The notes: generated by a model not told the origin, from the letters alone. 64,000 bases of DNA, filler included, from an uncultured Methanosarcinales archaeon (GCA_964630685.1; 5 parts of 5 records of this genome joined end to end with filler, not necessarily neighbours in it), one strand, 5' to 3'; shown: positions 8,539-64,000, counted from the whole stretch's first letter. Program-made: numbers and translations.

Positions 8539-8656
8539 CTCAAATGTTCTTTAAGTGTTTGATTTTATAAATTTTGTTATAAAAATGAGTTTTTAGAGAT
8601 AATTTTATATAATAGTGTGGATTTTGATATACTAGGCACTTAAAGAAGAAACTAAA

Positions 8657-9064
8657 ATGGTAATGTTGTTTGATAGGTTTAATTTATCTGAAGATATTTT
8701 CACTATTCTATTTGCTACAGAACAACAGAGTTTAGTGGCCAGACTTTTAATTGGGTATATAAAAGACAATGAAGGCGAGATAACTAAAACAGAGATGTCT
8801 ATGTTTGCAACACAATTACATGATGGAAACTATGTTGTGGGTGGAGATGTTGTTAAGATGAAAGTTAAAACTGTTAAATTGAGTTATAACAAAAGACAAT
8901 TTTATGATAGAATTCTTACACCTTTGAAATCCATGGGTTTGGTGGATTATGATTTGTATAAGAAGACTTATAGGATTAGTGAAAACTTTAATAAAGAGAT
9001 GACTAGAATAGGGTTGTTGTGGCTTAGGGAACTGCGAAAATCTCCTTTGAATTTAAAGAAATAA
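8657..9064 (+). CDS. Hypothetical protein, probable winged-helix
   Basis: 135-aa ORF. QFYDRILTPLKSMGLVDY..KTYRIS resembles a wHTH wing. Confidence 0.65.
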   Translation: MVMLFDRFNLSEDIFTILFATEQQSLVARLLIGYIKDNEGEITKTEMSMFATQLHDGNYVVGGDVVKMKVKTVKLSYNKRQFYDRILTPLKSMGLVDYDLYKKTYRISENFNKEMTRIGLLWLRELRKSPLNLKK

Positions 9065-9076
9065 TTATTTGAAAGT

Positions 9077-9289
9077 TTATTTGAAAGCTAATTTAATATC
9101 ACTACTTTTAACTGTTTTTCTTCCAGAATGTTTTGCTATCTTGATAGCTCTTTCAGATACTTCTTCACCAATATCTGTGAGAATTTCAGCTAGAGTGTTC
9201 ATAGCATCTGCACTCACTCTTTGTGCACCTGCTTTTACCATTATTCTCCCTACAGGAGCTCTAGGTATTATTTCAGTTCTTCGTGACAT
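9077..9289 (-). CDS. Archaeal histone (HMf family)
   Basis: IPRAPVGRIM..GAQRVSADA..AKHSGRKTVKSSDIKLA histone-fold signature. Confidence 0.95.
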   Translation of the reverse strand: MSRRTEIIPRAPVGRIMVKAGAQRVSADAMNTLAEILTDIGEEVSERAIKIAKHSGRKTVKSSDIKLAFK

Positions 9290-9371
9290 ATAATAAATTT
9301 AAAGCAAAAGAGTTTAAATAAGTTTTGATTTTCTCATAAGTTTTTTATACTTTAACTCTTTTTATTTTTTT

Positions 9372-10598: not shown

Positions 10599-10739
10599 GC
10601 CCCCTATTTTAAAAAATAAAATAAAGAAATAAAAAAGATGTTGGGCTAAAGAATAATTAAATAGGTTTAAATAATTTTTCTTAAATGGTAAATAAGGATT
10701 ATTTTATTTATTTATTATTTTATTTATTTATTATTTTAT

Positions 10740-11681
10740 TTAAACATGCGCAAAGAACTTAAATCTCACTATCGCATAAATGATATATGCTAAAATTAAT
10801 GTTATTGCTTCTTTTTTTTCAAGTTTCATTTTTCGTTTAAAGAAAAACATGGCTAATATAGATATAAAAAACCAAAATGGAAGATCATACCAAAGAATCG
10901 CACTATCGATTGTATAACCGGAAATCATTGCACCTATACCTAGTGCGAGCATAGGGTTTGTTATATTGCTACCAATTAGGGTGCCAAGAGACATTTTTGT
11001 GGATCCTTTAAGTATAGCAATTAATGCAGTTGTTAATTCTGGAAGTGCTGTTGCTGCACCAATCATTAATACACCTATCAAAGATTCAGAAACTCCCCAA
11101 ATCATTGATAAAGAGATCGCATTATCTACTACTATCTTTGCTGCAAATAATAATGCAGTTAACCCTACTATAAGATTAAGGAAATAATTTAATTTGTGTT
11201 TTTCAGGATTTCTTTCAATTACTTTTTCTTTTTTGATAAGCCAAATTAAAAACCAAATATATCCTATAACTAATAAAAATCCTTCAAATCTGCCGATTGT
11301 TTGGTTTAATGAAAAGAGAAATAACAAGAGTATTGCTCCGAGCATTATAGGATAATCTAATTTTAGTATTTTTTTATCTGTGTGTACTTTGGTTAATAAT
11401 GCAATGACGCCCAAAATTAATGTTATTTGAATTATGTTAGAACCTATATTTGTACCTACTGCAATTCCACTGCTCTCAACACCATTTAAGATGTTTATAC
11501 TAGCCATAATGTGAGTAAATATTTCTGGAAGAGACGTTCCTATAGATAAAATGGTTAATCCAATAATTGCTTCACTGATATTAAAAGCATATGCAATTTT
11601 TTTTGCTGCTTCTACAGTAATATTCGCACTTAACCATATAAAAATTAACCCCAATATTAGAAGTAATAATTCAAGATACAT
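10740..11681 (-). CDS. Ca2+/Na+ antiporter (YrbG/CaCA family)
   Basis: Alpha repeats GTSLPE..GTNIGSNI and ATALPE..GTLIGSNI. Confidence 0.9.
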   Translation of the reverse strand: MYLELLLLILGLIFIWLSANITVEAAKKIAYAFNISEAIIGLTILSIGTSLPEIFTHIMASINILNGVESSGIAVGTNIGSNIIQITLILGVIALLTKVHTDKKILKLDYPIMLGAILLLFLFSLNQTIGRFEGFLLVIGYIWFLIWLIKKEKVIERNPEKHKLNYFLNLIVGLTALLFAAKIVVDNAISLSMIWGVSESLIGVLMIGAATALPELTTALIAILKGSTKMSLGTLIGSNITNPMLALGIGAMISGYTIDSAILWYDLPFWFFISILAMFFFKRKMKLEKKEAITLILAYIIYAIVRFKFFAHV

Positions 11682-11682
11682 T

Positions 11683-12858
11683 TTATTCCATTATGTGAGG
11701 GCTTTTTTTTAATGTTCTTTCTAGTACAAATGGAAATATAAATGTGGTTATCAGTGCCATTGCGATGATTATTGAGTAAATTTCAATAGGTATCAATCCA
11801 TTTAGTCTTGCTACTTCTGCGATAACTAGTTCAACTGCACCCCTACTATTCATTCCCCACCCAATTAGTGCTGTTTGTTTTAAACTAAGTTTTGAGAATA
11901 ATTTTAATATCATTGAGCCAATTAATTTTCCACAAATAGCCATTATCATGATAAGAATAAAGATATGCCAATTAGATATGATTGAAGCGAGATCCATGTT
12001 AAGCCCAAGATGAATAAAGAAAAATGGAACTATAAAACCAAAACTGATTACTTTCAAATCATTTATTATTTTTCGTTCTTCTCTTTTATCTTTTCTCATT
12101 GATATTTGAAGAATCAGTCCTGCAATAAATGCACCAATGACTAATCCAAGACCAAATACTTGTGCTATTACAGCAATAAATAGTGCGAGAATTATGCTTG
12201 TTGTAAAATCACCTATTTCTGATTTTTCTTTTTGGATAGATGTTACTAATTTTGGAATCAGTTTAAACAACACGATTGCGATTAATATGAAAATAATTAT
12301 CCTTACAGGAAACATAACAATCCCAATTGCTGATTTGGAATGAACTATAACTAGTAGTAAACTTAGGAATATTGCAGCAAGTAAATCATCAATTATTGCT
12401 GCTTCTATAAGTATTTCTCCCATCCTAGTTTTAAGTTTTTTGAGTTCCATTAAAAGACGGATACTTGTTCCTGGTGCTGTGATAGATAATGCTGCACCTA
12501 ATACCACTGCAGCGATAGTGTCATAACCAAGAAGTTTCATGGTTAGATATCCTAAACCAAAGGGGACTACTGCTCCAAAGATTGCTATTAATATTCCTTC
12601 TTTCGAAGCTTTTTTTAGTCGTTTATAATCAATTTCCATACCTACCAGCAGAATTAAAAAGATGATCCCCAATTCAGCAAGAAAAGCGATAGCTGTTGTT
12701 GAACCAGGTAATAAGATTGAACTTTTTATGAAAGGAATGCTTACAATAAGTCCTGCAGCGATTTGACCAAGTACTCTTGGATAATGCATGCTGTGAGCTA
12801 ATTCTGATAGGGCAAAAGAAATAGTTAAACAAACTGCAATAGTCAGTAGCACCTCCAT
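11683..12858 (-). CDS. Cation:proton antiporter (CPA2/NapA-like)
   Basis: Many TM helices, with AAIIDD, GAFIAG and GMNSRG motifs. Confidence 0.9.
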   Translation of the reverse strand: MEVLLTIAVCLTISFALSELAHSMHYPRVLGQIAAGLIVSIPFIKSSILLPGSTTAIAFLAELGIIFLILLVGMEIDYKRLKKASKEGILIAIFGAVVPFGLGYLTMKLLGYDTIAAVVLGAALSITAPGTSIRLLMELKKLKTRMGEILIEAAIIDDLLAAIFLSLLLVIVHSKSAIGIVMFPVRIIIFILIAIVLFKLIPKLVTSIQKEKSEIGDFTTSIILALFIAVIAQVFGLGLVIGAFIAGLILQISMRKDKREERKIINDLKVISFGFIVPFFFIHLGLNMDLASIISNWHIFILIMIMAICGKLIGSMILKLFSKLSLKQTALIGWGMNSRGAVELVIAEVARLNGLIPIEIYSIIIAMALITTFIFPFVLERTLKKSPHIME

Positions 12859-12917
12859 TTTGAATAAAGATTAGTTTAGTAGTTTATATATTTTATGATA
12901 AAGAAAGAAAATGAGGT

Positions 12918-14567
12918 TTAAATTGAGAAACTTATGTATTCTACTTGTGGTGCTTGTGCAGGTGGTTGAATAGGTTCGGTTGTAGGTGTTGTTTCTTGTG
13001 TGGAGGGTGTTGAAGTTGTTTCTTGGTTTTGGGTTGTGGATGTTTGTGTCTGGGGTTTTAGCACTTTAAAATTCCAAACTTTTTCAACAATATTTTCTCC
13101 ATCATTTGCTTGAAATACAACCTTTTTATTTCCTGTTCTTTGAAATACTCTTTTGTGGATTGTTGAACCAGCATATGCATTAAACATTCCAAAGTCCCAA
13201 GTGTAAGTTAAATTATCATTATCTGCATCAATTGTATCAACTTCAAATACAACTGCCCCACCAACATAAACTTCAAATTCATTTGTTGAAGGTGTGCTGT
13301 TAGTTATTTCTGGAGCTCTGTTAATATTTTTTACTTTTATTGTAGTTTGTTTTGTATCACTATTTTTTCCATCAAAAGTTGTAATATTGAGATTAAATTC
13401 TTTTTCTTTTTCTTCTGTACTTACAGCATCAAAATTAGGGGTCCAAGAAAATGTTTTTCCATCAAAGATTGCTCCTTCTGGTAAAGGTGTTGCATGAAAA
13501 CTTAATTCATCTACATCTTCATCAAAACCAGAAATCTCAAAAGAAACTTCTTCTCCTTCATCAATCTTATATGATTTTATTTTACCTAATACTGGTGCTC
13601 TATTTGTGTTTTCAATTATCACAGTTGCTGTTGTTGAATCTGATAAAAAACCATCAGATGCAGTAACTGTTACTAGATGTATCCCAGCATCATTATATGT
13701 TGTTTCATAATTATTCTGAGAAACCCATCCAGAAAAATAATAACTTATTGAATCACTATCAGGGTCAGAAGAGTTTGGAGTAAAATATAATTTTTCTCCT
13801 TCTTTTATGGTGGTGTTTTCAATAGATTGTATTTTTGGTGGTCTGTTGAAATCTATTACATTTATTGGGATTATTTCATTTGTATCGAGATCTTTTCCTT
13901 TTGCATTTATTGTTGCTGTAAATTCTTTATTGTCTTTTAGAATATCTAAATGAAGTTTTGCTAATATTTTTCTTAACCAGCTTTTACTAAGAGTATCATA
14001 TCCTGGTTGCCAGTAAAGGGTGTTATTCACAAATAGTGCATTTTCAGGTAATTCAATTGCTGTTAAAGTTACATTATCTTTATCTAAATCAAATGCTTCG
14101 ATTGGTAAAATCAATTCTTGGTTTTCGTTTAAAGTTTGTTTCCCTACTGCCACAATAATGGGGGGTCTGTCTTTTTCAAGAACAATAATATTTATTTGAC
14201 TGTGATCAGAATATTCTCCATCTGTTACTGTGACATCGATAGTGTATTCTCCTGCATCTTCATAACCGGGAGTCCAAGTGCCATTTTCATCAAATGGTGC
14301 TGAAAAGAAATATTTGAGGGTATCTTCTTTATCAGGATCACTTGCACTTACATTGATAGTAATCAATTCTGTTTCGTCTGCTGTTATTGTGTTAATTGGT
14401 TCTGTATTAATTGGTTCTGTATTAATTGGTTCTGTATTAATTGGTTCTGTATTAATTGGTTCTGTATCTATAGGGGTTGTTTGATTGTCTGAAAGATTAT
14501 CAGCTTTGATAGAACTGACTATTAGAATTAATATTAAACTCGTGAATAATAGTTTTTCTAACTTCAT
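12918..14567 (-). CDS. Secreted Ig-like/cadherin-like repeat + PKD surface protein
   Basis: Signal peptide, repeated NRAP/DPDxD/SDG modules, LTYTWDFG PKD motif and a Thr/Pro-rich tail. Confidence 0.8.
   Translation of the reverse strand: MKLEKLLFTSLILILIVSSIKADNLSDNQTTPIDTEPINTEPINTEPINTEPINTEPINTITADETELITINVSASDPDKEDTLKYFFSAPFDENGTWTPGYEDAGEYTIDVTVTDGEYSDHSQINIIVLEKDRPPIIVAVGKQTLNENQELILPIEAFDLDKDNVTLTAIELPENALFVNNTLYWQPGYDTLSKSWLRKILAKLHLDILKDNKEFTATINAKGKDLDTNEIIPINVIDFNRPPKIQSIENTTIKEGEKLYFTPNSSDPDSDSISYYFSGWVSQNNYETTYNDAGIHLVTVTASDGFLSDSTTATVIIENTNRAPVLGKIKSYKIDEGEEVSFEISGFDEDVDELSFHATPLPEGAIFDGKTFSWTPNFDAVSTEEKEKEFNLNITTFDGKNSDTKQTTIKVKNINRAPEITNSTPSTNEFEVYVGGAVVFEVDTIDADNDNLTYTWDFGMFNAYAGSTIHKRVFQRTGNKKVVFQANDGENIVEKVWNFKVLKPQTQTSTTQNQETTSTPSTQETTPTTEPIQPPAQAPQVEYISFSI
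14392..14466. repeat. 15-bp coding tandem repeat x5 (TEPIN)
   Basis: ttaattggttctgta in five exact copies. Confidence 0.95.
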
Positions 14568-14669
14568 TTTCTATTTACCCACCCCCCTTACAAATAAATA
14601 ATAAAAAATAAAAACAAGAAGACTAATAAGATTATTAGTCTTTTAAATCACTTAAATGTAATTTTATGT

Positions 14670-16019
14670 TTATGAAACACCTAAAATTACAGGCGGTCTG
14701 TTTACGTTATTAACTGTGATAGTTAAATCCATTGTGTCTATTCCGCCATATTGGTCCATTGCAGTTATTGTTACTGTGTGTTCTCCTGCATCATCATATG
14801 TTGTTTTATATGTGTTTGAGTTCATCCATCCTGAAAAGGTGAATGCCACATCATCATCATTTGCGTCAGTTGCTGTTGGACTCAATGTTATGGTGTCTGT
14901 TTCATCAACTACAAGGTCATCCATTGCTCCTAATACTGGATCTTCGTTGATACTGTTGATGGTTAATGTTAGTTTTTCTGAAGTGCTTAAATCACCATCA
15001 GATGCAGTAACATATATAATGTATTCACCAACATCTCCTCTCTTGCTCTCTAATTTTCCTTGATCGTTTAATGGAGCTGTGAAAGAGAAGGTTATTTCAT
15101 CTCCGTCAAGATCTGTTGCAGATGCTTCGATTTCAACGAGTTCTTCTTCATCGATAACGATATCTTCAACTTCTCCCAATGATGGAGCTCTGTTGGTATT
15201 GGTTACTGTGATTCCAACATTTTGAACAATTTCTGAGAATCCATCAGATGCAGTGATTGTGGTTGAGAATATTTTTAAGCAATTAAATACTCCTTTTTCA
15301 CACACAACATCATTATAGCTTACCTCATATTCTTCTGAATTCATTAATCCTGAAAAGGAAAATACTACAGTATCATCATTTCCATCAGTTGCTTTTGGTT
15401 CAAGAACTATTTTATCGCCTTCTTTTACCGCAATGTTTTCTATTTTTTCCATTACAGGTTCTTTATTGATTGATTCTACTACAACCAATACTTTAGCCAT
15501 TGTTTCTAAATCACCGTCAGATACAGTAATGTTTACAATATAATCTCCAACATCTCCCCTTTTAGTTTGCCATTCTCCATCTTTACTTAATGGAGCACTG
15601 AAAGTATACATCAGTTGATTTCCATCTGGATCTTGTGCATTCACATTAAGACTTACAATTTCTTTTTCTTTTACAGTTATTTTTTTGAATACTCCTGCTG
15701 GAAGTGATTGTACAATATCTTCGACTTTTATTTGAGTTAATTCTTCATTTTCTTCTTCATTTTCATCAGTCATTATTGTTGTATCTATTGTTGTATCTTC
15801 CCCTAAGACAATAGTTTCATTTTCTAAACTAACTATTTCTTCTTCAATTTGGATTATAGCGTCTAACTCTTGTTTTTCTACAGGTATATTTTCTACCTGA
15901 GAAACTAATTCTTCTGGCATTGTGATTAATCCAGAAGGTTCATAAGGTTGTTTTACGCAACCATTTAGCATTAAAGCTAATAGAATAATTAAAACACCTA
16001 TCAATCTTTTTTTATTCAT
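14670..16019 (-). CDS. Lipoprotein with Ig-like/cadherin-like repeats
   Basis: MNKKR start with lipobox LNGC, and four DPDG/SDG/NRAP modules. G-rich RBS supports ATG 16019. Confidence 0.8.
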   Translation of the reverse strand: MNKKRLIGVLIILLALMLNGCVKQPYEPSGLITMPEELVSQVENIPVEKQELDAIIQIEEEIVSLENETIVLGEDTTIDTTIMTDENEEENEELTQIKVEDIVQSLPAGVFKKITVKEKEIVSLNVNAQDPDGNQLMYTFSAPLSKDGEWQTKRGDVGDYIVNITVSDGDLETMAKVLVVVESINKEPVMEKIENIAVKEGDKIVLEPKATDGNDDTVVFSFSGLMNSEEYEVSYNDVVCEKGVFNCLKIFSTTITASDGFSEIVQNVGITVTNTNRAPSLGEVEDIVIDEEELVEIEASATDLDGDEITFSFTAPLNDQGKLESKRGDVGEYIIYVTASDGDLSTSEKLTLTINSINEDPVLGAMDDLVVDETDTITLSPTATDANDDDVAFTFSGWMNSNTYKTTYDDAGEHTVTITAMDQYGGIDTMDLTITVNNVNRPPVILGVS

Positions 16020-16116
16020 TCTTATAATACCCCCATTGTATAGTAAATAAAGTATGTTGCTATTTAATAATAGCAACCTCTATAAAAACTTTTCTATAAC
16101 TGATTATATAAATTTA

Positions 16117-17660: not shown

Positions 17661-18740
17661 ATGAAAAAGGGGTTAAAAAAGTCTCAAATACAGTCACAAA
17701 TATTTGTCTACCTTCTTGTTGCAGTAATTATTGGATTTATGTTACTTTTTGCATTTAAAGCGATAAGTGGTTTTGGTAAGAAAAATATCGAACATCAAAT
17801 AATTTTGTTTCAAGAAAACATCAAAAAAGACATAGAAGCACAAGGGATTCATGTTGGTTCTGTTGTTGAAGAATCTTATGTTGTACCTAGTTTTGTTACG
17901 CGTGCTTGTTTTTTAGATATTTCTAAAAGAGAAGAAATATTGGGTCAGGGAGATTTTGAAGATTATCCGCTAGTAGTGGATAGTTTAGAAACTACTGACA
18001 ACAATATGTTTTTATTTGATAAAGATGATAATTTTTATAATTCTTTTAATGTTGGGAGTATAAATCTTTTAGGGGATTATAATTGTCAACCACACGTTTG
18101 TTTTGATGTGCAAAATAAAGTGTTGAATATGCTTATGATGGGGAGAGGACATGCTACGCTTTTGTTGCCTAGCACTGTAAATAAACAGTATTTAGTTACT
18201 TGTGATTGTCCAAAAGGATGTAGGATAAGACCTATTGCTCAATTGTTGGCAGAAGAAGGAATGCAGTATCTGCCTGTTTTTTTTAATGCTTCTGGTTCAC
18301 ATGATATTGATGATGAGATATCCCAGTATTTCTGGAATTTTGGAGATGGAAACAATAAAACTACTGAGTTACCTACAACTGAACATATTTATAGTGGTGT
18401 TGATGAATATGGGGTTGAATTGGTTGTTACAGATGTTGATGGGTTAGAAGGAAAAACAACACTCAATGTAGGGATAATGCCTTATCAATTAATTGCTAAT
18501 GCTGGGGGAGACAGAACAGTCATGGTTGGGGATGACATTGCTTTTGATGGATCTAATTCAATAGGAAGGATAGTGAGTTGGCATTGGGAATTTGGAGATA
18601 TAAGGGATAAAGAAGACGAAGACGAAATAGTTCATTTTACTTATATTCAACATGGCTCAAAAGTTGCAACCCTTACTGTTATAGATGTTTTTGATAATAT
18701 TGCTGTAGATACAATTAATGTAGAGGTTACACCAAGATAA
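17661..18740 (+). CDS. Class III signal-peptide (prepilin-like) protein with two PKD domains
   Basis: KKSQ followed by a hydrophobic helix. FNASGSHD..YFWNFGDG and FDGSNS..WHWEFGD PKD motifs. Confidence 0.75.
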   Translation: MKKGLKKSQIQSQIFVYLLVAVIIGFMLLFAFKAISGFGKKNIEHQIILFQENIKKDIEAQGIHVGSVVEESYVVPSFVTRACFLDISKREEILGQGDFEDYPLVVDSLETTDNNMFLFDKDDNFYNSFNVGSINLLGDYNCQPHVCFDVQNKVLNMLMMGRGHATLLLPSTVNKQYLVTCDCPKGCRIRPIAQLLAEEGMQYLPVFFNASGSHDIDDEISQYFWNFGDGNNKTTELPTTEHIYSGVDEYGVELVVTDVDGLEGKTTLNVGIMPYQLIANAGGDRTVMVGDDIAFDGSNSIGRIVSWHWEFGDIRDKEDEDEIVHFTYIQHGSKVATLTVIDVFDNIAVDTINVEVTPR

Positions 18741-30235: not shown

Positions 30236-30335
30236 NNNNNNNNNNNNNNNNNNNNNNNNNNNNNNNNNNNNNNNNNNNNTTAATTAATTAANNNNNNNNN
30301 NNNNNNNNNNNNNNNNNNNNNNNNNNNNNNNNNNN
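30236..30335. other. Artificial contig junction (N44-TTAATTAATTAA-N44)
   Basis: N run with a six-frame-stop linker. Confidence 0.95.
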
Positions 30336-32460: not shown

Positions 32461-32719
32461 TACATACACTGTATGTATTTTTAGCTAGCTAGTTACTAAT
32501 TTTACATACATTGTATGTATTACNNNNNNNNNNNNNNNNNNNNNNNNNNNNNNNNNNNNNNNNNNNNNNNNNNNNNNNNNNNNNNNNNNNNNNNNNNNNN
32601 NNNNNNNNNNNNNNNNNNNNNNNTTAATAAATGTTTCTATTTTTTACATACATTGTATGTATTACTTAATAAATGTTTCTATTTTTTACATACATTGTAT
32701 GTATTACTTAATAAATGTT
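32461..32719. repeat. Array of the palindrome TACATACA-N-TGTATGTA (at least 4 copies), two inside a 42-bp tandem unit; spans scaffold gap 32524-32623
   Basis: Copies near 32461, 32503, 32645 and 32687. Unit ttaataaatgtttctattttttacatacattgtatgtattac occurs twice after the gap. Confidence 0.8.
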
Positions 32720-36370: not shown

Positions 36371-36636
36371 CTTCACACCATTTGATTACAGAAGGATTTA
36401 CAAGAACTGTTTGTCCTTATTGTTGGAGAACTATAGATGAAAGAGAATGGGGTTCAGAATTTGAAGGTGAAGTTCATTATAAAAGTGCTGTTTGTGAATG
36501 TGGAAAACAAATAAGATTGACTGTAGATTTTCAAGGTTCAGGGCATGATGAGTGGCAAGAAAGAACAACATCTTTTTTGGCTAAAAAAGAAATTGAGAAT
36601 CAATCAAATACTTCAATTGAGGATAAATTAAAATGA
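36367..36636 (+). CDS. Small Zn-ribbon protein inside the por operon
   Basis: CPYC..CECG. ATGA overlaps with both porA and porB. Confidence 0.7.
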
Positions 36637-38630
36637 TTTTAGGATTAAACGAAGAAGAATTATTGGAATTTGGACATAATGCTTGTGCTGGTTGTGGTGA
36701 AGCGTTGGCTGCGAGATATGTTATGAAGGCAGCTGGAAAAAATACAATAGTTGTAAATGCTACTGGTTGTTTAGAAGTGTTTTCTACACCTTATCCTCAA
36801 ACTGCATGGAAAGTTCCTTGGATTCATGGAGCTTTTGAAAATGCATCTGCTATTGCTTCTGGAGTCGAAACCGCACTAAAAAAATTAGGAAAGAAAAAAG
36901 ATGTAAATGTGCTGGCTTTTGGTGGGGATGGCGGAACCTTTGATATTGGGTTTCAATCATTAAGTGGAATGGCTGAGAGGGGACATAATGTGTGTTATGT
37001 GTGTTATGATAATGAAGCTTATATGAATTGTTTAAGTGTAGATTCTTTAGTTATGACAGAAAAAGGTTTGAAGAAAATAACTGAAGTTAAAAAAGGAGAA
37101 ATGGTTTACGCGTTCAATCAAAAAAATTATCAATTAGTACTAAAAAAATGTATGGGTGTTTTTGACAATGGAAGAAAAAGAGTTTTTGAGTTAGAAACGC
37201 TGCATCATAATATAAAAGCAACGGGGAATCATCCTTTTTTAGTGTTAAAACATAATAGAAGAGGGAAAGAAAACACTTTTGTATGGAAAAATTTGGATAA
37301 GATTAAAAAAGGAGATGAAATAGTTACACTAAAAAAAATAAGTGAAGGTATTTCATATATTTTTAAGAAAATAAAATTAACTAAAAAAGGAGATTATAAA
37401 GTAAATAAATTAAATAAGGTTAAATTACCCCTTAAATCCAGTGTTGAGTTAATGAGATATTTTGGAATTTATCTTGGTGATGGGTGGATAAGAAAAGAGC
37501 GAGGAGAATTGGGATTTGATGTTCCCAAAAAGAATCGTGCCAGAAAAAAATTATTAGAGTTACAGAAAAAAATATTTAAGTTAAGTGCTAAAACAGATGA
37601 TAATTATGTTTATGTTAATTCAGTAAACATAACAAAATTTATTGATTCTTTAGGGTTTGGAAAAGGTGCAAAAAATAAAATAATTCCATCATGGATTTTT
37701 ACACTTCCAGAAAAAGAAAAAATTGCATTTGTTGATGGATTAATGCTTTCTGATGGTTATAAACATGGGAAAAGTTGGAGATATGTTTCAGCGAGTAAAG
37801 AGTTATTATCTAGATTGAGATTGCTTCTTCAAACCATGAATTTTAGGGTTGGCAAAATACATTGCCAAGTAAAGAAAAAAGGAACTCATTGTGTTTATAG
37901 AAATCTTTTGAAGGATTCTTCTTATGGGTATATATGTTTTAGCAAAAAAAGCAAACCAAAAATATCTAAATATATAAGTCAATATAAATATACTAATTTT
38001 TTAATAGATAATCTTAATTTTGATATAGAAAAAGTTAAGAACGTAGTTAAAAAAGGAGTGGAATCAACTTTTGATTTGAGGGTGGATGGAGAGCATAATT
38101 TTGTTGCCGATGGAATTGTTGTACATAATACTGGCGTTCAAAGGTCTGGGGCCACACCTAAATATGCATCTACTACAACTTCTCCTGCTGGAAAAAAAAT
38201 TCCAGGCAAAACAGAGTATGCTAAACCTATGCCATTTATCATGGCTGCACATGGAATTTATGTTGCTACTGCCAGTATTGCTTATCCACAAGATTTAATT
38301 AGGAAAGTTAAAAAAGCATTGAGCATGGATGGACCTTCTTATATTCAAATTTTTAATTCTTGCCCTCTTGGTTGGAAACATAAATTTAATTTAGGAATTA
38401 GGATAGCAGAATTAGCATATAAAACAAATGTGTTCCCCTTATATGAAATTGAAAAAGGAATTGTAACAATTAGTAAAAAACCTGTACAGAAAACACCTGT
38501 TGTAGAATATTTAAAACTACAAGGCAGATTTAAACACTTGGGTGAAGAAGAAGTAAAAGAAATACAAGGAAATGTTGATGCTAAGTGGGAAAAATTGTTA
38601 AAGCTTGAAGAAACAAAAATTGGTTTTTGA
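36633..38630 (+). CDS. porB: Pyruvate:ferredoxin oxidoreductase beta subunit (intein-containing)
   Basis: [28 protein letters not shown]|intein|TGVQRS, CPLGW. Confidence 0.95.
37029..38129 (+). mobile_element. Intein (367 aa) with LAGLIDADG homing endonuclease
   Basis: Starts CLSVDS, block [16 protein letters not shown] and DGLMLSDG endonuclease blocks, ends [12 protein letters not shown] with Thr at +1. Confidence 0.95.
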
Positions 38631-55893: not shown

Positions 55894-55993
55894 NNNNNNN
55901 NNNNNNNNNNNNNNNNNNNNNNNNNNNNNNNNNNNNNTTAATTAATTAANNNNNNNNNNNNNNNNNNNNNNNNNNNNNNNNNNNNNNNNNNNN
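55894..55993. other. Artificial contig junction
   Basis: N run with TTAATTAATTAA linker. Confidence 0.95.
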
Positions 55994-57205: not shown

Positions 57206-57305
57206 NNNNNNNNNNNNNNNNNNNNNNNNNNNNNNNNNNNNNNNNNNNNTTAATTAATTAANNNNNNNNNNNNNNNNNNNNNNNNNNNNNNNNNNNNNNN
57301 NNNNN
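57206..57305. other. Artificial contig junction
   Basis: N run with TTAATTAATTAA linker. Confidence 0.95.
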
Positions 57306-57330
57306 ACCAAACTCAAAAATCACTTCGTGA

Positions 57331-57398
57331 CTTCATATAACATTGACTAAACGGTTCGCTGACGCTCTCCCAAATTTTTCTCTTACTAGGGGGTCGCC
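57331..57398 (+). repeat. Left half of an attC-like element plus left inverted repeat
   Basis: ATATAAC, attgactaaacg, gttcgctgacgctc, ccaaa, then tttttctcttact (57375-57387) and tagggggtcgcc (57387-57398). Confidence 0.5.
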
Positions 57399-59284
57399 TA
57401 AATAAAATTCATCTGATACCATCTGATGAATGTAAGAACACTAAAAACATGATTTGTCCTAATCTCTACTTCTTGACTTATTGGTAACCAAGCAGTTAGA
57501 TACTCTCCTCCTCTCCCTCTTCCTAACTTTTTCTCTAATTCTTTTATTCTTTCTTTAAACACTTTATTCAATTTAACAATATATTTTTTATCCAAAATGC
57601 TCCAAACTCCAGCAGGTGCAGACTTAATATTCTTATCCAATTCTTTTGCTACTAATTTATGCAATTTCATCTCTTCATTTGCTGGCAATGGTGCTTTTCT
57701 TCTCTCGTAGATCTCTTTAGGAAGAACTTCTTTGAATGCTTCACGCAAAACAAATTTCTCAGTTCCACCTTTCAAATTTTCCTGCATTGGAACTTCTAAT
57801 GCAATCTTGACAACATTATGATCACAAAATGGAAGTCTTGCTTCTACAGAATTAGCCATACTACACCGATCATTTGCATCCTGTAAAAACTTTAAGAATT
57901 TTTTTGCATAAAAATATTGCATTCTTTCTACAGAATTTTTGCTCTTACATCTATCATAATAATTTGAAACATTATAGTCTATAACCTTATCAAAGTTCAC
58001 TGAACCTAAAAAATCTTTAGTGAAGTATTGACTACAATGAGGGACTCTCTTTTTCCATAAAGATCTAAATTTCTTAGAAGTAGCACAAGCTTCTTTATCC
58101 AATTTTAGTCCTGGAAATTTATGAAAATATCCTAAATTAAACTCGTCTGCCCCTTCTCCTGTTAAAACAACTTTACAACCAGCTTTATGTAAAGTACGAT
58201 AGTTTGCTAACATTCCAAGTTGTCTTATTGTATCATGAGGTTCATCCATTGCTTTAATCATAAAATCAACATCAGAAATCATTTTCTCCGCAGTTAAATT
58301 TGGAGTTAATAATTTAATTCCTCTTTGCTTTGCTAGAACTTGCGCATGTTCAAAATCAGGATTCTTTGTATCTCCTTTAAATTTAATAGATGAGGAAGTA
58401 AATTTTCCATCAAAATTATCATCTGCAACAGCAGTAATTATGCTTGAATCTAATCCTCCACTTAATGCAGTTCCAAATTTAACTTCATCAGGCAGTCTTA
58501 TTTTAATTGCTTTTTCAACTTTTCTTCCTAATTCTTTGACAAAATTCTTTCTTTTATCATGTAATTTTTTTGTATGAATTGGAACATCCCAATATTCTTT
58601 TATCTTCAATCCATTTTTATCAAAGATTGCATAAGTTCCAGGATTAAATCCCAAAATTCCTTTAAAGAATGATCTGTTAAGACCAGCATTTCCCGCTGCA
58701 AAAGTAAGCATTCCTAAAAAATAATCAGCAATTGTTTCATTATCTGGCTCTTTCCTAAATCCAGGATAACCTAAAATTCCTTTTGGCTCTGAACTGAATA
58801 GGAAAGTTCCATCTTCTAATAAAGAATAATAATATGGCTTTATTCCAGTTCTGTCTCTAGCCATAAAAACCAAATTTTTCTTACCATCATATATTGCAAA
58901 AGCAAAAGCACCTACAAATTTATTGACACATTTATTTCCCCATTCAAGATAAGATTTTAAGATTACTTCTGTATCAGAATGAGTTTTAAATTTATATCCT
59001 TTCTTTCTTAACTCTTCCCCTAGTTCATTATGATTATAAATTTCGCCATTAAATGTGATAGCATATTCATTTCCTTTATGTTTCTCAATAATTGGTTGAT
59101 GCCCTCTTTTCACATCTACAATACTTAATCTAGCGTGACCAAAGACAATATTCTTATTTTTAGAAATAAATGTGCCTTTATCATCTGGACCTCTATGATC
59201 TAAACATTGGTTCATAGATTTAACTATCTTAAGAGAATTCTTGATTGGAGAAGAAAAATTTATGATACCATTTATTCCGCACAT
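57398..59284 (-). CDS. asnB: Asparagine synthase (glutamine-hydrolysing) family amidotransferase
   Basis: MCGI, HRGPD, NGEIYN, LSGGLDSS, TGEGADE, EARLPF. Confidence 0.93.
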   Translation of the reverse strand: MCGINGIINFSSPIKNSLKIVKSMNQCLDHRGPDDKGTFISKNKNIVFGHARLSIVDVKRGHQPIIEKHKGNEYAITFNGEIYNHNELGEELRKKGYKFKTHSDTEVILKSYLEWGNKCVNKFVGAFAFAIYDGKKNLVFMARDRTGIKPYYYSLLEDGTFLFSSEPKGILGYPGFRKEPDNETIADYFLGMLTFAAGNAGLNRSFFKGILGFNPGTYAIFDKNGLKIKEYWDVPIHTKKLHDKRKNFVKELGRKVEKAIKIRLPDEVKFGTALSGGLDSSIITAVADDNFDGKFTSSSIKFKGDTKNPDFEHAQVLAKQRGIKLLTPNLTAEKMISDVDFMIKAMDEPHDTIRQLGMLANYRTLHKAGCKVVLTGEGADEFNLGYFHKFPGLKLDKEACATSKKFRSLWKKRVPHCSQYFTKDFLGSVNFDKVIDYNVSNYYDRCKSKNSVERMQYFYAKKFLKFLQDANDRCSMANSVEARLPFCDHNVVKIALEVPMQENLKGGTEKFVLREAFKEVLPKEIYERRKAPLPANEEMKLHKLVAKELDKNIKSAPAGVWSILDKKYIVKLNKVFKERIKELEKKLGRGRGGEYLTAWLPISQEVEIRTNHVFSVLTFIRWYQMNFI

Positions 59285-59285
59285 T

Positions 59286-60092
59286 TTATTTACCTCTTTT
59301 ATACATCTGTTTTACTTTTTTGTTTATTAAATTTGTCTTTTCAGTACTTGTGGAAACATTAACTTCGTTAACTTCTCTCACTGGCATTGCACCCATGCTT
59401 GTACTTGAGATAAATACTTCGTCATACTTTCCATCCAACACATCCTTAATCAGAATTTTCTCAAAAACTAAATTTAATCCTAATTCTTTTGCAGCTACTA
59501 AAATATGCTTTCTAGTTACACCTTCTAAAACTTGTTCATTAGTTGTAATCAATTCATTCCCTTTGATAACAAATAAATTAGACCTTGTTCCTTCCAAAGC
59601 AAAACCATCTTTATCAACGAGTAATGCATCTAAAGCTTTCTGTTCTTGTGCCTTTCTATAGGCAACATAATTCAAAAGCAAACAATTAGATTTAGCTTCT
59701 GGAAGATATCGTTCTCCATTATAAGTTACAACTTTAATGCCCTCTCGGTAAAACTTCTTTGGATAAAATGTAATACCAACAGTAAAAACAAACAGAGTAG
59801 GATTCTCTCCCCCAATTAATTGGACTCTCAATAATCCATTTTCAGTATTATTTTTTTCAATTAGTTTGTTAAAACTATTAATCAAATCAGATTTAGAAAA
59901 GCTATGCTCAATACCAACAACTTTAGCTGAGTTCATCAACCTTTCAATATATTCATCAACAAAATACACTTTCCCCTGAATCACTTTTAGAGACTCATAG
60001 ATACTAAAATTAAAAAAATATTCTCTATGAGTAACAGGCATTACAGCTTCTTCTTCAGGAATTAGTTGATAATTTTTTATTACGTATTTCAT
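59286..60092 (-). CDS. PLP-dependent class IV aminotransferase (BCAT/DAAT/ADC-lyase family)
   Basis: YESLK, EAKS (PLP Lys), EGTRSNLF, LEGVTR, EVFISST. Confidence 0.88.
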   Translation of the reverse strand: MKYVIKNYQLIPEEEAVMPVTHREYFFNFSIYESLKVIQGKVYFVDEYIERLMNSAKVVGIEHSFSKSDLINSFNKLIEKNNTENGLLRVQLIGGENPTLFVFTVGITFYPKKFYREGIKVVTYNGERYLPEAKSNCLLLNYVAYRKAQEQKALDALLVDKDGFALEGTRSNLFVIKGNELITTNEQVLEGVTRKHILVAAKELGLNLVFEKILIKDVLDGKYDEVFISSTSMGAMPVREVNEVNVSTSTEKTNLINKKVKQMYKRGK

Positions 60093-61306
60093 TTTGACTC
60101 CAAATTAACTTTATGAGCATTTCCTGTAAGAGAAAACACAACAATTTTATCTTGTCCATCAAATTCCTTAGCTTTCTCAATAGCACCTTTAATCGCATAA
60201 CAAGATTCAGCAGCTGGTTTGATTCCTTCAGTTTTTTCAAAAAGTTCACTTACTGGATCAACCTCATTTGGTTCATAAGCTACTGCCTTAATTACATTAT
60301 TGTGTACTAACAATGATAATAATGGATTCTTACCATGATAATTAAGTCCACTTGCACCTAAGCTTGTAGGAACAAAATCATTTCCTAGAGTAAACATTTT
60401 AGCCTTTGGCATCAAACCAATTAAATCTGGATTTTCATATCTGTAAGTACCTTTAGTAAAACTTGGAACTCTTGCAGATTCTACAGCAATGAAATCAGTA
60501 GTATCTCTTAGACCTTCAATTAACGGAAATACTAATCCAGAAAAACTACTTCCACCACCAACTACACCAATTACAGCATCTGGTACAATGTTAAGCTCAT
60601 TTAATTGATCTTTTAATTCCATACCAATTACAGTGTTATGTAATGCAGAATAGGCACTAAGACAACCTAGTGACAATTTATTTCTTTCATCTTTGTTTAC
60701 GTGTTGCATAGCATGACTAATACTTGCTGCAATTGTTCCTTGTTTGGTTATAATTGGTTTTACAATTGCTCCTTGCTGTTTCATTACATCAACTTTATCA
60801 ATTTTCAAATTGTAATTACTTTCTTCCATGTAGATTGTTGCAGGAATTCCAAATTCTTTACAAGCAACAGCCATACCCATTCCCCAATTACCTGGACCAG
60901 TATCACCAATAAATTCTTTTACTCCTTCTTTATTAGCAAAATATGCCTGTACATAAGAAGAATTTAGTTTGTAGCTGTTGATTGGACTTTTATCTTCTCT
61001 TTTAAAGAAAATTTTTACTTTCTTTAGCCCTAATGCTTTCTCAAGTTTCTTAGCTCTGACAAGTGGAGTGCTTCTATAAGTTTCATATAAATCTTGAATT
61101 TTCTTAGGAATCTCAATTAATTTCTCTTTTTTATATTTTCCAATATTTAACTCCTGTTTTGCCAATTCAACAGGAAGAATTTTGGATAACTTTGATAGCT
61201 TCATATTTTCTCCTGTTTTTGGATCTAAAAGTATAGGAATCTCTAATTGAAGCTCTTCCTTAATGAATGGAACAATATTATACCAATATTTTTGTTTTTT
61301 AGTCAT
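60089..61306 (-). CDS. Divergent TrpB2-like PLP enzyme
   Basis: WYNI, TPLVRAKKLEKAL, SYKLNS, DTGPGNWG, VGGGSSFSGL, SGLNYHG, PAAES. Confidence 0.85.
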   Translation of the reverse strand: MTKKQKYWYNIVPFIKEELQLEIPILLDPKTGENMKLSKLSKILPVELAKQELNIGKYKKEKLIEIPKKIQDLYETYRSTPLVRAKKLEKALGLKKVKIFFKREDKSPINSYKLNSSYVQAYFANKEGVKEFIGDTGPGNWGMGMAVACKEFGIPATIYMEESNYNLKIDKVDVMKQQGAIVKPIITKQGTIAASISHAMQHVNKDERNKLSLGCLSAYSALHNTVIGMELKDQLNELNIVPDAVIGVVGGGSSFSGLVFPLIEGLRDTTDFIAVESARVPSFTKGTYRYENPDLIGLMPKAKMFTLGNDFVPTSLGASGLNYHGKNPLLSLLVHNNVIKAVAYEPNEVDPVSELFEKTEGIKPAAESCYAIKGAIEKAKEFDGQDKIVVFSLTGNAHKVNLESK

Positions 61307-61349
61307 TTTTAATTACCTCGTTTTGTTATAACTTAGTAGTAAAGACTAA

Positions 61350-61404
61350 AATACTTAAAGAAGAGCGTCCCCTCACAGGACGACTTTAGAAAGATTTAAA
61401 TAGT
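61350..61404. promoter_or_regulatory. Divergent promoters with a central palindrome CGTCC-N7-GGACG (candidate TrmB operator)
   Basis: TATA-like tttaagta on minus (~61352-61359) and tttaaata on plus (~61396-61403) flank the palindrome at 61366-61382. Confidence 0.55.
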
Positions 61405-61425
61405 ATATCCTCTTTTTATAACAAT

Positions 61426-62184
61426 ATGGAGCTATCAGAACTACGAAAAATTGGCCTTACAGAGGGAGAAATTAAAGTATATGAAGCACTTTTAAACTTA
61501 GGGGAGTGTACCAAAACCTCTCTCGTTAAAGAAGCAGGAATCGCACCAAGTAATATCTATGATATTACAAATAGGCTTATTGAGAAAGGTATTGTGTCAA
61601 AAGTGCTGAAGAACGGAATTGCTCATTTTAGCCCTGCTAATCCGAGGCATATGTTGGATTTTTTGGATCTAAAAGAAAAAGAGATTGAGAAAGAGAGGGA
61701 TCTTGTAACTGAAATATTGCCTACATTATTGGCTAAATTTAAAGATTCTAGAGAAAAAGTAAATATTGAAGTTTTTCAGGGATGGAATGGATTGAAAACT
61801 ATTTTTGAGGAATTGCTTGAAGTTTGTAAAGAGGGAGAGGAGAATTATGTTTTTGGAGCTAGTAGAGGAGAGAGTGATAAAAAAGCAGATATCTTTTTTT
61901 TAAAGTATTCAAGAATGAGAGAAAAACAGGGAATTATTACTAAAATTATCTTTAATCAGGATATGAGGGAGAGGAAAGAGAGATTAAATTTCTTTCTCAG
62001 ATCAAAGAAATATGATGTGAAATTTCTCAATCAAACAACACCTACAGAAATAATGATTTATAAGAATTTTACTGCAATAATAATTCTAACTAAAGAACCT
62101 TTGGTCATTAGAATTTCAGGTAAAGAAGTTGCAAATAGTTTCAAACAATATTTTGATGCTATGTGGCAACTTGCAAAAAAGTAA
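61426..62184 (+). CDS. TrmB family transcriptional regulator
   Basis: LRKIGLTEGEIKVYEALL..IYDITNRLIEKG wHTH, VFQGWNGLKT, and FDAMW C-terminus. Confidence 0.9.
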   Translation: MELSELRKIGLTEGEIKVYEALLNLGECTKTSLVKEAGIAPSNIYDITNRLIEKGIVSKVLKNGIAHFSPANPRHMLDFLDLKEKEIEKERDLVTEILPTLLAKFKDSREKVNIEVFQGWNGLKTIFEELLEVCKEGEENYVFGASRGESDKKADIFFLKYSRMREKQGIITKIIFNQDMRERKERLNFFLRSKKYDVKFLNQTTPTEIMIYKNFTAIIILTKEPLVIRISGKEVANSFKQYFDAMWQLAKK

Positions 62185-62185
62185 T

Positions 62186-62245
62186 GGCGACCCCCTAAAT
62201 CTAGTCTGCTAAAGCAGAATTCAATAATAAAAAGTAAGAGAAAAA
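62186..62245. repeat. Right inverted repeat of the asnB-trmB cluster
   Basis: ggcgacccccta (62186-62197) and agtaagagaaaaa (62233-62245) are exact reverse complements of 57387-57398 and 57375-57387. Confidence 0.75.
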
Positions 62246-62343
62246 CTACAGTGGCACCTAAAGTAGAGGCAGTGTAAAAACTTCTCCGTTCGCTAACGCT
62301 CACTGCGACCCCGCTGCGCTCTCCTCCTTTCAGTCGTCGGGTC

Positions 62344-62464
62344 GGCTAACAGGAATTTAACGGAAAAATGCTCGGCTCGCATTTTTCCCAAATTTGATTT
62401 TCCAGCTATGTTCCGCTTCGCTTCACGAGGGAAAATCAAACTTCGTTAAATTCCGATGTTAAAC
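62344..62464 (+). repeat. attC-like integron cassette recombination site
   Basis: GGCTAAC at the left end and GTTAAAC at the right. 11-bp stem ggaatttaacg/cgttaaattcc, with internal hairpins gaaaaatgc/gcatttttc and tttgattttcc/ggaaaatcaaa. Confidence 0.65.
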
Positions 62465-62469
62465 TCAAT

Positions 62470-62569
62470 NNNNNNNNNNNNNNNNNNNNNNNNNNNNNNN
62501 NNNNNNNNNNNNNTTAATTAATTAANNNNNNNNNNNNNNNNNNNNNNNNNNNNNNNNNNNNNNNNNNNN
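62470..62569. other. Artificial contig junction
   Basis: N run with TTAATTAATTAA linker. Confidence 0.95.
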
Positions 62570-62570
62570 A

Positions 62571-64000
62571 ATTGATTATATTGAAGTTAATTATGATTAT
62601 GAAAATGAATTGTTTGCTATCCAGAGTAATAAAAGTATTAGGATAAGTGGACCTTCTAATGCAAATCTTGATAAATTAGTTTTAAATGCTGTTGAGATTG
62701 ATGTTGGGTTGAGTTGTGGTAATGATGAAAAACTGACTGGAAGTGATAATGTTTTGAGTTGTGAAACAGATTTAGTAAAGGATTCTGATTATATCATTGG
62801 TAATGAGTATCCTCTTGGTGGTGTTGGAATAACTATTAATGATAGAACAGTAAGTGTTAATGAGAGTTGGTTAGATGATAATTATATTGAACAAGATTTG
62901 TTGTCTTGGGATAATTTGACTGGTGTTCCTGGTGCTTTTTCTGATGGTGTTGATAATGATACTACTTATAGTGAAGATAGTGATTATTTGACTTTGACTA
63001 ATACTGTTTTTGATTTTAATGAATCTGTTTTGAATGATACTATTGATGCTCGTGCTGGTTCTGTGACAGATGTTTGGGTGAATGAAAGTGGAGATACCAT
63101 GACTGGGGCATTAAGTATTAATCAAAATGCCGGTGCACTAAATCTACGAGGAACAAACCATGTTTATATTCAGTTTTATCCAGATAATGGGGAAAGAAGA
63201 GCTTGGATTGGTTATGGGAGTTATGACAGTGATATTTTAACTATTCATAATCAATATGGTGGTGGAACTGTAATGATCAATAGTGGGCTTGGGGTTGTTG
63301 GCGGTGCTGAAATTGGGGGGCAAATTAAGATTAGTGGAGGAAATCCAAGGAATGGTAGAGTGCTCAAATCTGATGCTAATGGACTTGCTAGTTGGGGAGA
63401 TGATGATGATGTTCCAGATACAGATGAAGTAACCAAGACTGCTATAGCTAACAGTGGAACTCTTGACTTTGATTGGGAGGATGATGAGGTAAGTAATATA
63501 TTAACAATAAGTTCTAGTGGACATATTAATGCTGGGGCGATTGATAGTGGTACTGTTCCTAATGCTCATTTAGATACTGATTTACAAGATTTGGCAGACG
63601 GAACATTGAATGCGAGTAAAGTACAATATGGTACTTATTTTATTACTGGTGATGGAATTAATGGGCAAGTATGGAAGTCTGATGGTGTTGGTGTTGGTGG
63701 TTGGGGAAGTGATGATAGTGGTATTACTGAAGCAGAAGCTGATAATTTATATGTTAATATTGATGGGGATAATATGACTGGTGCGTTGCGTACCCTTACT
63801 TTAGATACTGGGCAAGGAGCTAATGAACTTTATGGTATGGATCAGAATGTTACGACTACTGATTCACCAACATTTGTAGATCTTACAACTACAGGAGATT
63901 TAACTGTTGGTGGCGATGTTACTGCTGATTTTTTTATTGGTAATGGATCCTCACTAACAAGTGTTGATGCAGACACTCTTGATGGTCTGGATTCTTCTGA
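62571..64000 (+). CDS. Internal fragment of a large tail-fibre-like/adhesin surface protein (open at both ends, absent from the ORF track)
   Basis: Stop-free frame with WVNESGDTMTGAL, YVNIDGDNMTGAL, GRVLKSDANGLASW, GQVWKSDGVGVGGW, GANELYGMDQNV and DADTLDGLDSS motifs. Confidence 0.8.
   Translation, partial: MDYIEVNYDYENELFAIQSNKSIRISGPSNANLDKLVLNAVEIDVGLSCGNDEKLTGSDNVLSCETDLVKDSDYIIGNEYPLGGVGITINDRTVSVNESWLDDNYIEQDLLSWDNLTGVPGAFSDGVDNDTTYSEDSDYLTLTNTVFDFNESVLNDTIDARAGSVTDVWVNESGDTMTGALSINQNAGALNLRGTNHVYIQFYPDNGERRAWIGYGSYDSDILTIHNQYGGGTVMINSGLGVVGGAEIGGQIKISGGNPRNGRVLKSDANGLASWGDDDDVPDTDEVTKTAIANSGTLDFDWEDDEVSNILTISSSGHINAGAIDSGTVPNAHLDTDLQDLADGTLNASKVQYGTYFITGDGINGQVWKSDGVGVGGWGSDDSGITEAEADNLYVNIDGDNMTGALRTLTLDTGQGANELYGMDQNVTTTDSPTFVDLTTTGDLTVGGDVTADFFIGNGSSLTSVDADTLDGLDSS

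Follow-up and report, generated by a model that had tools for sequence, protein, structure and literature searches.

The window analysed here is the whole 64,000-nucleotide (nt) stretch of DNA from the draft genome of an uncultured Methanosarcinales archaeon (GCA_964630685.1), and the subject of this report is a four-gene cassette at positions 57398–62184, in which three coupled genes are transcribed divergently from a TrmB-family gene. On the minus strand lie, in the order of transcription, genes for a TrpB2-like pyridoxal 5'-phosphate (PLP) enzyme of a distinct subfamily (60089–61306; 405 amino acids (aa); signature SYK, DTGPGNWG, GGGSS, GLNYHGKN and ESCYA), a fold-type IV (class IV) transaminase of the D-amino-acid-transaminase type (59286–60092; 268 aa; Pfam Aminotran_4) and a long-form glutamine-dependent AsnB-type amidotransferase (57398–59284; 628 aa; Pfam GATase_7 and Asn_synthase). 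The TrpB-like gene and the transaminase gene overlap in an ATGA common to the stop codon of the former and the start codon of the latter, and the AsnB start follows the transaminase stop after a single nucleotide. On the plus strand, beyond a divergent promoter region of 119 bp (61307–61425), follows a regulator of the TrmBL2 type (61426–62184; 252 aa; Pfam TrmB, 50.3 bits). The location of the open reading frames (ORFs), the ATGA overlap, the 1-nt gap and the divergent TrmB gene had all been reported in the initial annotation of this locus and are confirmed in the ORF calls and in the sequence, and its family assignments agree with both Pfam and NCBIfam.

The TrpB-like enzyme has a compact set of close relatives. 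About 55 proteins are at least 54% identical to it, after which there is a gap down to 44%, with ordinary TrpB2 proteins at about 39%; a few of the close relatives are named as Patescibacteria, Microgenomates, Parcubacteria or Diapherotrites. Among 1.84 billion representatives at 50% identity, one full-length cluster (585 bits) and fragments were found, and the next match scored 328 bits. In a tree of 63 rows, the clade and its sister P0121, which is 44% identical, are monophyletic with a support of 100% in the Shimodaira–Hasegawa-like approximate likelihood ratio test (SH-aLRT). The closest solved structures are those of Sulfolobus TrpB2 (6hul_B, E value 5.7e-72 over residues 5–396), and alignments to TrpB2 (TrpB2i 6hul_B; TrpB2 6hte/4qys) span the full length, including the TrpB2-type N-terminal extension. 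Like TrpB2, the TrpB-like enzyme has no TrpA partner gene nearby in the loci examined; unlike TrpB2, it lacks, in the printed alignment, an insertion of about 12 residues after query residue 182. The NCBIfam models for TrpB-like proteins gave scores below their cut-offs, by as little as 0.9 bit for NF009057 (365.1 against 366) and by more for TIGR01415 (344.6 against 518.85), while the TrpB1 model TIGR00263 gave 121.4 bits against a cut-off of 392.45. A tblastn search of phage and plasmid collections returned ordinary TrpB and TrpB2 relatives at no more than 39% identity and no member of the clade, and the ESM Atlas returned generic tryptophan-synthase clusters only.

Fifty aligned clade members were compared with 49 TrpB2 sequences, with residues numbered as in E. 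coli TrpB. The clade differs from TrpB2 by H86Y, E109D, A112P, Q114N, L166I, Y186L, S190C, Q205N and C230V, and further by N236S, R305N, H353Y and S377T. These signature residues are identical in at least 90% of the clade members and most of them in 50/50. Tyr86, Asp109 and the DTGPGNWG motif are present in all 50 members, in place of SHK and ETGAGQ(H/W)G, and H86, E109, A112 and Q114 are shared by E. coli TrpB and all 49 TrpB2 sequences. At position 305, the clade has Asn in 98% of its members, TrpB2 has Arg in 49/49 (within GLRYHG) and TrpB1 has Asp. The residues retained include the PLP lysine (equivalent to K87, in all clade members), the GGGS phosphate loop, E350, W115 and Y306. The initial annotation had pointed to SYK in place of SHK, to DTGPGNWG in place of ETGAGQWG and to the preserved PLP lysine in this one protein, and the same features are seen in the alignments of all clade members examined.

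In TrpB, Glu109 activates indole, residues 110–115 form the loop that binds the carboxylate of the substrate, and residue 305 points towards the leaving group. O-phosphoserine is reportedly a substrate of TrpB2, going by the title of a 2014 article by Busch and colleagues, and Arg305 of TrpB2 probably binds the substrate phosphate. The concerted and invariant change at position 109, in the carboxylate loop and at position 305 argues for an altered reaction, short of proof. The similarity searches, the tree and the residue comparison identify the clade as a new, compact subfamily of TrpB2-like proteins with what is, judging from its residues, a remodelled active site. A group of candidate phyla radiation (CPR) proteins with D109, L186 and C190 (e.g., P0061, 'TrpB-like ... 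Candidatus Uhrbacteria') is among the closest outside the clade, at 41–45% identity. It has Asp109, Leu186 and Cys190 in common with the clade but, unlike the clade, retains SHK, TGAGQWG, Arg305, N236 and H353; because only D109, L186 and C190 are shared, this group looks like the ancestral stock of the clade. Apart from these relatives, many TrpB2-like representatives at 50% identity (P0129–P0162) have D, S, G, A, H, Y, C, P or Q at the position of Glu109, and two of them, P0129 and P0148, lack the PLP lysine. This diversity suggests that the label 'tryptophan synthase beta' may cover many uncharacterised functions, including some pseudoenzymes.

The altered motifs also bear on a catabolic explanation, in which the TrpB-like protein is chiefly a beta-eliminase that converts serine or threonine to pyruvate or 2-oxobutyrate and ammonia, and the transaminase feeds keto acids to fermentation. 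The SYK and G-N motifs are nearer to the general fold-type II dehydratase pattern, a pyruvate:ferredoxin oxidoreductase is encoded in the genome from which the window was taken, and an ADP-forming acyl-CoA synthetase adjoins the TrpB-like gene in one of the related loci described below (L002). This explanation is nevertheless very unlikely: the most constant partner of the TrpB-like gene is AsnB, a biosynthetic enzyme that uses up ATP, and the hydrophobic pocket (W115, I166, L186 and Y306) is retained.

The AsnB-type protein is predicted to be catalytically complete. Across relatives with at least 42% identity, the glutaminase residues Cys1, R49, N74, G75, E76 and D98 and, in the synthetase domain, the SGGxDS pyrophosphate (PP)-loop, E348, D351, E352, Y357, K429 and K449 are conserved in 57–61 of 61 sequences. 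The best match in the PDB is 7ylz, a 'hydroxyamidotransferase' (E value 1e-67, residues 1–572), which we take to be the trichostatin enzyme TsnB9. Against E. coli AsnB (1ct9), the best stretch covers only the N-terminal glutaminase domain, and the cassette protein is about 70 residues longer; the N-terminal nucleophile (Ntn) glutaminase site, the PP-loop and E348/D351/E352/K449 are common to the cassette protein, 1ct9, human 6gq3 and 7ylz. The statement in the initial annotation that AsnB-family enzymes act on substrates other than Asp is borne out by this closest structure. The accompanying idea that the pathway might serve detoxification finds no support, the protein being an ATP-consuming synthetase with all of its catalytic residues intact. 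In human asparagine synthetase (ASNS), the equivalent of the E348/D351/E352 cluster holds the amino acid end of aspartyl-AMP, according to PMC6748925. The cluster was considered as a test for Asp as the acceptor and was rejected, since the same motif (GEaADE) occurs in the hydroxyamidotransferase 7ylz and the motif does not discriminate between acceptors. Positions 322/325 and 384/387 of E. coli AsnB gave no clean alignment and were not used.

The third enzyme, the class IV transaminase, looks D-specific, a prediction made from its closest structures and its conserved residues. Its best PDB matches are 7p8o/7p7x (the D-amino acid transaminase of Haliscomenobacter), 9j0u (Dat) and 3daa, with E values of about 1e-25. 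With the family models, its scores are below the cut-offs for D-amino acid transaminases (TIGR01121, 129.6 against 277.45; NF005209, 128.8 against 320) and for branched-chain transaminases (TIGR01122, 97.9 against 245.55; another model, 113.5 against 363). All seven of the cassette transaminases have Y32, K134, E167 and the EGTR turn. Of the features of the enzyme of Bacillus sp. YM-1 (3daa), the catalytic Lys and Glu are kept, as is a Tyr equivalent to Y31, whereas the 'carboxylate trap' R98/H100 is replaced by Thr and Phe. The enzyme of Haliscomenobacter hydrossis has a positively charged O-pocket made up of R28, R90 and R179, the last of which is called rare by the authors (PMC8401098). The equivalent of R179, the Arg of EGTR, is found in all seven cassette transaminases, as is an Arg or Lys at the R90 position, while R28 is replaced by Phe.

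To determine how widely these genes travel together, species-representative genomes were scanned with clade-specific peptide patterns; 56 stretches matched and 11 loci were confirmed. The loci belong to Andersenbacteria, Paceibacterota (two), a Patescibacteria group bacterium, Saccharibacteria (three), Kerfeldbacteria, Microgenomates, Iainarchaeum and Woesearchaeota, and thereby span at least six CPR bacterial phyla and two phyla of archaea in the DPANN superphylum. AsnB is adjacent to the TrpB-like gene in 8/11 loci (L001, L003, L004, L006, L007, L008, L010 and L011), the transaminase in 6/11 (L001, L006, L008, L009, L010 and L011), and a TrmB-family gene lies divergently upstream in 6/11 (L001, L003, L004, L006, L010 and L011); the TrmB-family gene of L005, 6 kb off, was excluded from this count. 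Co-occurrence of the genes in other genomes had been set beforehand as a test of the small-molecule pathway proposed in the initial annotation, and with these counts for AsnB and the transaminase the proposal withstands that test. In an all-against-all ORF comparison, the only genes that recur across loci are those for the TrpB-like protein, AsnB, the transaminase, the TrmB-like regulator and a large serine recombinase. AsnB is downstream of the TrpB-like gene in 9/9 cassettes that have both, the window included, and the gaps between the two genes are roughly 1–13 nt in six loci. The position of the transaminase varies, and it can be found before, between or after the other two genes. Full-text literature searches aimed at the cassette or the subfamily found no description of either, and a paper on gene exchange in Patescibacteria (PMC12455944) contains none of the cassette terms.

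Individual loci show further features. In L007, on a 166-kb Saccharibacteria contig, the pair of TrpB-like and AsnB genes (5910–13842) is set among core genes: rpsB-tsf lies on one side and pheS-pheT on the other, and a regulator, a transaminase and a mobility gene are all absent. In the Saccharibacteria locus L010, the TrpB-like gene (7959–9188) and AsnB (9192–11061) are each split into two ORFs, which reflects either decay or assembly error, and a reverse transcriptase gene (RVT_1, 14405–15445) is nearby. The Woesearchaeota locus L006 has an extra 117-aa ORF without a Pfam match (4198–4551, plus strand) between the promoter block and the transaminase, for which the window has no counterpart; small unmatched ORFs are found in the same position in L003 and L004 (100 aa each) and in L010 (104 aa).

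Evidence of mobility is found in several of these loci. Five of the 11 loci have a mobility gene close to the cassette: in L001, L008, L009 and L010 it encodes a large serine recombinase, and in L006 a DDE transposase. The TrpB-like proteins are 60–86% identical across bacterial and archaeal loci, and the archaeal rows of the tree form two separate groups (supports of 98 and 100), so that a minimum of two moves across the domain boundary is implied. The contig of L006 carries the archaeal markers L11, Spt5 and aIF5A, so that the cassette is genuinely present in archaea. For the window, L006 gives the closest relatives of AsnB (88%) and of the regulator (63%), and the Andersenbacteria locus L001 those of the TrpB-like protein (73%, against 66% to L006) and of the transaminase (45%); as read from these identities, the gene histories are mosaic. 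The distribution, the recombinases and the tree together establish a compact, mobile cassette that crosses domains and is shared by CPR bacteria and DPANN archaea.

This spread of hosts has a bearing on an explanation by the cell envelope, in which a D-amino acid comes from the transaminase, the carboxylate of an envelope precursor is amidated by AsnB and the TrpB-like enzyme makes the building block to match. Some long-form AsnB relatives amidate peptidoglycan precursors, and the AsnB of the cassette is of the long form (about 625 aa), unlike that of E. coli or human, with 1ct9 aligned by its N-terminal domain only. The transaminase has features of the D-amino-acid type, and CPR bacteria make up most of the carriers. 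The same cassette is also found on archaeal contigs with archaeal markers (L006), however, and no gene of envelope synthesis recurs beside it across the loci, which leaves this explanation quite improbable.

The reading that we tentatively favour, with a confidence somewhat short of even, is that the cassette is a horizontally mobile and functionally coupled module, its coupling deduced by us, that converts a serine-type precursor to an amino-acid derivative other than tryptophan. The TrpB-like enzyme would form a PLP-aminoacrylate from a serine-type substrate and add to it a nucleophile, either in place of indole or as well as indole. The amidotransferase would use ATP and glutamine to amidate the carboxylate of the TrpB-like product or of a co-substrate, and the transaminase would set or remove the alpha-amino group, probably in the D configuration. 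Routes that draw on the same enzyme classes and lead to a beta-substituted alanine derivative or amide are known. In coenzyme M synthesis, cysteate synthase carries out a beta-replacement that is followed by transamination, and the dapdiamide route combines a PLP-synthase (DdaA/B) with an AsnB-type amidotransferase (DdaH). The cassette is likened to these routes by enzyme class only, and both need further enzymes that are absent from it. The product cannot be named from the sequence.

Several observations weigh against the favoured reading. Asp109 is still a carboxylate, and tryptophan synthesis remains compatible with it. The AsnB protein scores 437.3 bits with TIGR01536 (asparagine synthase, glutamine-hydrolysing), for which the cut-off is 267.1, and keeps the E348/D351/E352 cluster. 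The membership of the cassette is not constant, in that the TrpB-like gene has no partner beside it in L002 or L005, L009 has no AsnB, and L003, L004 and L007 have no transaminase. AsnB itself seems to occur without the TrpB-like gene, by the proxy of contig size: relatives at 52–59% identity are on contigs of 697 kb and 1.37 Mb, sizes that match no TrpB-like hit. By longest-contig size, a weak proxy, 15 of 120 listed AsnB relatives were paired with a hit of the TrpB-like clade, and by the same weak proxy no such pairing was seen for several AsnB relatives that are closer and lie on very large contigs. Longer or fused forms of the TrpB-like protein with its partners were searched for and none was found, which is weak evidence. 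Co-occurrence across lineages is also partly a matter of block transfer, and the loci are not independent of one another. Separately, two TrmB-family genes of about 250 aa are present in each of L001 (3801–4607 and 6270–7025), L003 (1685–2458 and 6569–7366) and L006 (3305–4060 and 11689–12492); this two-domain type of regulator seems to be common in these lineages, and its mere presence near the cassette therefore weighs less.

Many of these points would be expected of a salvage kit, in which the enzymes act independently in single steps, yielding Trp or Cys from serine with scavenged indole or sulfide, respectively, and Asn from Asp, and interconverting amino and keto acids. The genes would be co-regulated and would travel together because each works alone in an auxotrophic symbiont. 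A link between TrpB2 and indole scavenging is reportedly the subject of a 2014 article by Hiyama and colleagues, as its title has it. PMC11917138 likewise connects TrpB2 with the scavenging of indole. AsnB is above the asparagine synthase cut-off with its catalytic and amino-acid-binding residues all conserved, and relatives of it apparently occur without a TrpB-like gene, as judged by the proxy alone. Membership varies, and when counted for this explanation the TrpB-like gene is alone in 2/11 loci, the transaminase is missing from 3/11 and AsnB from 3/11. With this variable membership and the canonical score of AsnB, the salvage kit stays a serious rival, if a doubtful one. What it does not readily accommodate is the replacement of H86, E109, A112, Q114 and residue 305, all in the same way across 50 clade members (Asn305 in 98%), and a D-specific-looking transaminase of no obvious use for protein amino acids. 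The fixed order of the TrpB-like gene and AsnB, with the narrow gaps given above, suggests coupling, and the loci re-assort the same three families and do not swap them for others.

A bolder version of the favoured reading, which we regard as unlikely, is that the cassette encodes new PLP beta-replacement chemistry with a nucleophile other than indole and a leaving group other than phosphate, together with amidation and D-transamination, and that its product is a small non-proteinogenic amino-acid amide used on or against hosts. If this were true, the amide would serve ultra-small symbionts as a signal, as an antimetabolite or as a building block of the envelope, and such a use would account for the exchange of the cassette between bacteria and archaea on integrative elements. 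More generally, a conserved and mobile trio of amino-acid enzymes that crosses domains points to a metabolite important to symbionts. The TrpB-like subfamily is, moreover, a natural experiment at residues that engineers alter in TrpB (position 109 and the carboxylate loop), which makes it a candidate source of new biocatalysts.

In the structural model of the regulator (predicted local distance difference test (pLDDT) score of 85), a winged helix-turn-helix (HTH), a long helix and a phospholipase D (PLD)-like domain are seen, without a sugar-binding domain. Foldseek placed TrmBL2 at the top for this model (5bqt/5bpd, E value 1e-15), followed by TrmB (3qph) and PLD-fold proteins; Pfam matches only the HTH, and the models for sugar-sensing TrmB gave scores far below their cut-offs (NF040851, 21 bits against 600; NF047390, 36 against 650). 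TrmBL2, which is archaeal and chromatin-like, has the same three-part architecture over about 265 aligned columns and also has no sugar-binding domain. The identity is 16–18%, the TM-scores are only 0.41–0.48 and the root-mean-square deviation is large owing to domain placement. A further difference is that the regulator described here is a locus-specific, divergent neighbour in 7/12 cassettes, the window included.

Within the promoter region, TATA-like boxes were read by eye at about 61352–61359 (minus strand) and 61395–61402 (plus strand), using the archaeal TATA consensus, and a Shine-Dalgarno-like GAGGT precedes the TrpB-like start. The palindrome that the initial annotation had placed between the two boxes is present as a GC-rich inverted repeat, CGTCC-N7-GGACG, at 61366–61382. 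Its standing as a palindrome is less firm, as each arm has only 5 bp, a repeat search with a 6-nt seed did not report it, and the arms are not strictly conserved in L006. When the intergenic region is aligned with that of L006, the two boxes are preserved, together with much of the central block. The block may be the site of repression, and from this conserved position between the TATA boxes a TrmBL2-type regulator would repress both promoters.

The setting of the cassette within the window requires some care. The window is a pseudo-molecule, and its linker pattern is one used for the concatenation of draft contigs. Artificial linkers (N44, a 12-base six-frame stop and N44) bound the cassette contig on the left (57206–57305) and on the right (62470–62569); linkers of the same type are also present at 30236–30335 and 55894–55993, and a plain N100 at 32524–32623. 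Gene adjacency across these linkers is artificial throughout the window, so that rpS2 on the left and a repetitive surface-type ORF on the right, both of which lie beyond linkers, are apparent neighbours only. The cassette is the sole gene content of a piece of 5,164 bp (57306–62469). A Pfam scan of the 59 other ORFs in the window, which is 64 kb of a draft genome, found no trp gene. The initial annotation had counted the absence of trp genes from the contig in favour of its proposal, an argument that is void, as the window consists of concatenated contigs with the cassette alone on its piece, and the absence carries no weight.

This arrangement raises the possibility of a binning artefact, in which the 5.2-kb contig is from a CPR bacterium and was misplaced in an archaeal bin. 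The contig carries nothing but the cassette, and among named genomes the nearest match to its TrpB-like protein is from Andersenbacteria (73%). An artefact is still rather improbable, given that the best matches of AsnB (88%) and the regulator (63%) are on a Woesearchaeota contig with archaeal markers, that of L006, to which the promoter block also aligns. The GC content of the cassette, about 30–32%, is also similar to that of the rest of the window, which is archaeal and of low GC and encodes fibrillarin, Nop5, ABCE1, an archaeal-type prolyl-tRNA synthetase (ProRS) and pyruvate:ferredoxin oxidoreductase. Such an artefact would concern the host only and is compatible with every functional reading of the cassette.

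The ends of the cassette are marked by repeats. A perfect 12-bp inverted repeat flanks the four genes exactly, its left arm (57387–57398, plus strand) overlapping the AsnB stop codon and its right arm (62186–62197, minus strand) lying 2 nt past the stop codon of the TrmB-like gene; it has two matches in the window against 0.01 expected. A GC-rich direct repeat of 14 nt, with one mismatch between the left (57354–57367, plus strand) and right (62288–62301) copies, likewise has two matches in the window against 0.09 expected. The right copies of both repeats are held in a GC-richer, structured flank (62185–62469, plus strand) that reaches the contig end and folds better than its shuffles (z = -2.8). 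The 11-nt core of the inverted repeat was not found in any of the 11 related loci, and the repeat was ruled out on these grounds as a shared element end. The end repeats may be traces of insertion, or they may be local repeats that broke the assembly.

Searches for other kinds of elements were largely negative. PADLOC assigned the four cassette proteins to no defence-system family, Rfam gave nothing at gathering score within the window and, on the cassette, a single sub-threshold match (RT-2, 17 bits against 40), and a tRNA search found none. Elsewhere in the window, beside the pyruvate:ferredoxin oxidoreductase genes, the gene for a thiamine-diphosphate enzyme subunit (36633–38630, plus strand) has a Pfam Intein_splicing match over residues 140–499. 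A long ORF that runs off the window (62610–63998, plus strand) is without a Pfam match, is rich in Asp, Gly, Thr and Asn, has recurring 'GD.MTGAL'-like motifs and may encode a surface or fibre-like protein. Proteins with PKD, cadherin-like and Big_9 domains are encoded at 12918–16076 (minus strand) and 17661–18740 (plus strand), and are typical of the surface proteins of small symbiotic archaea.

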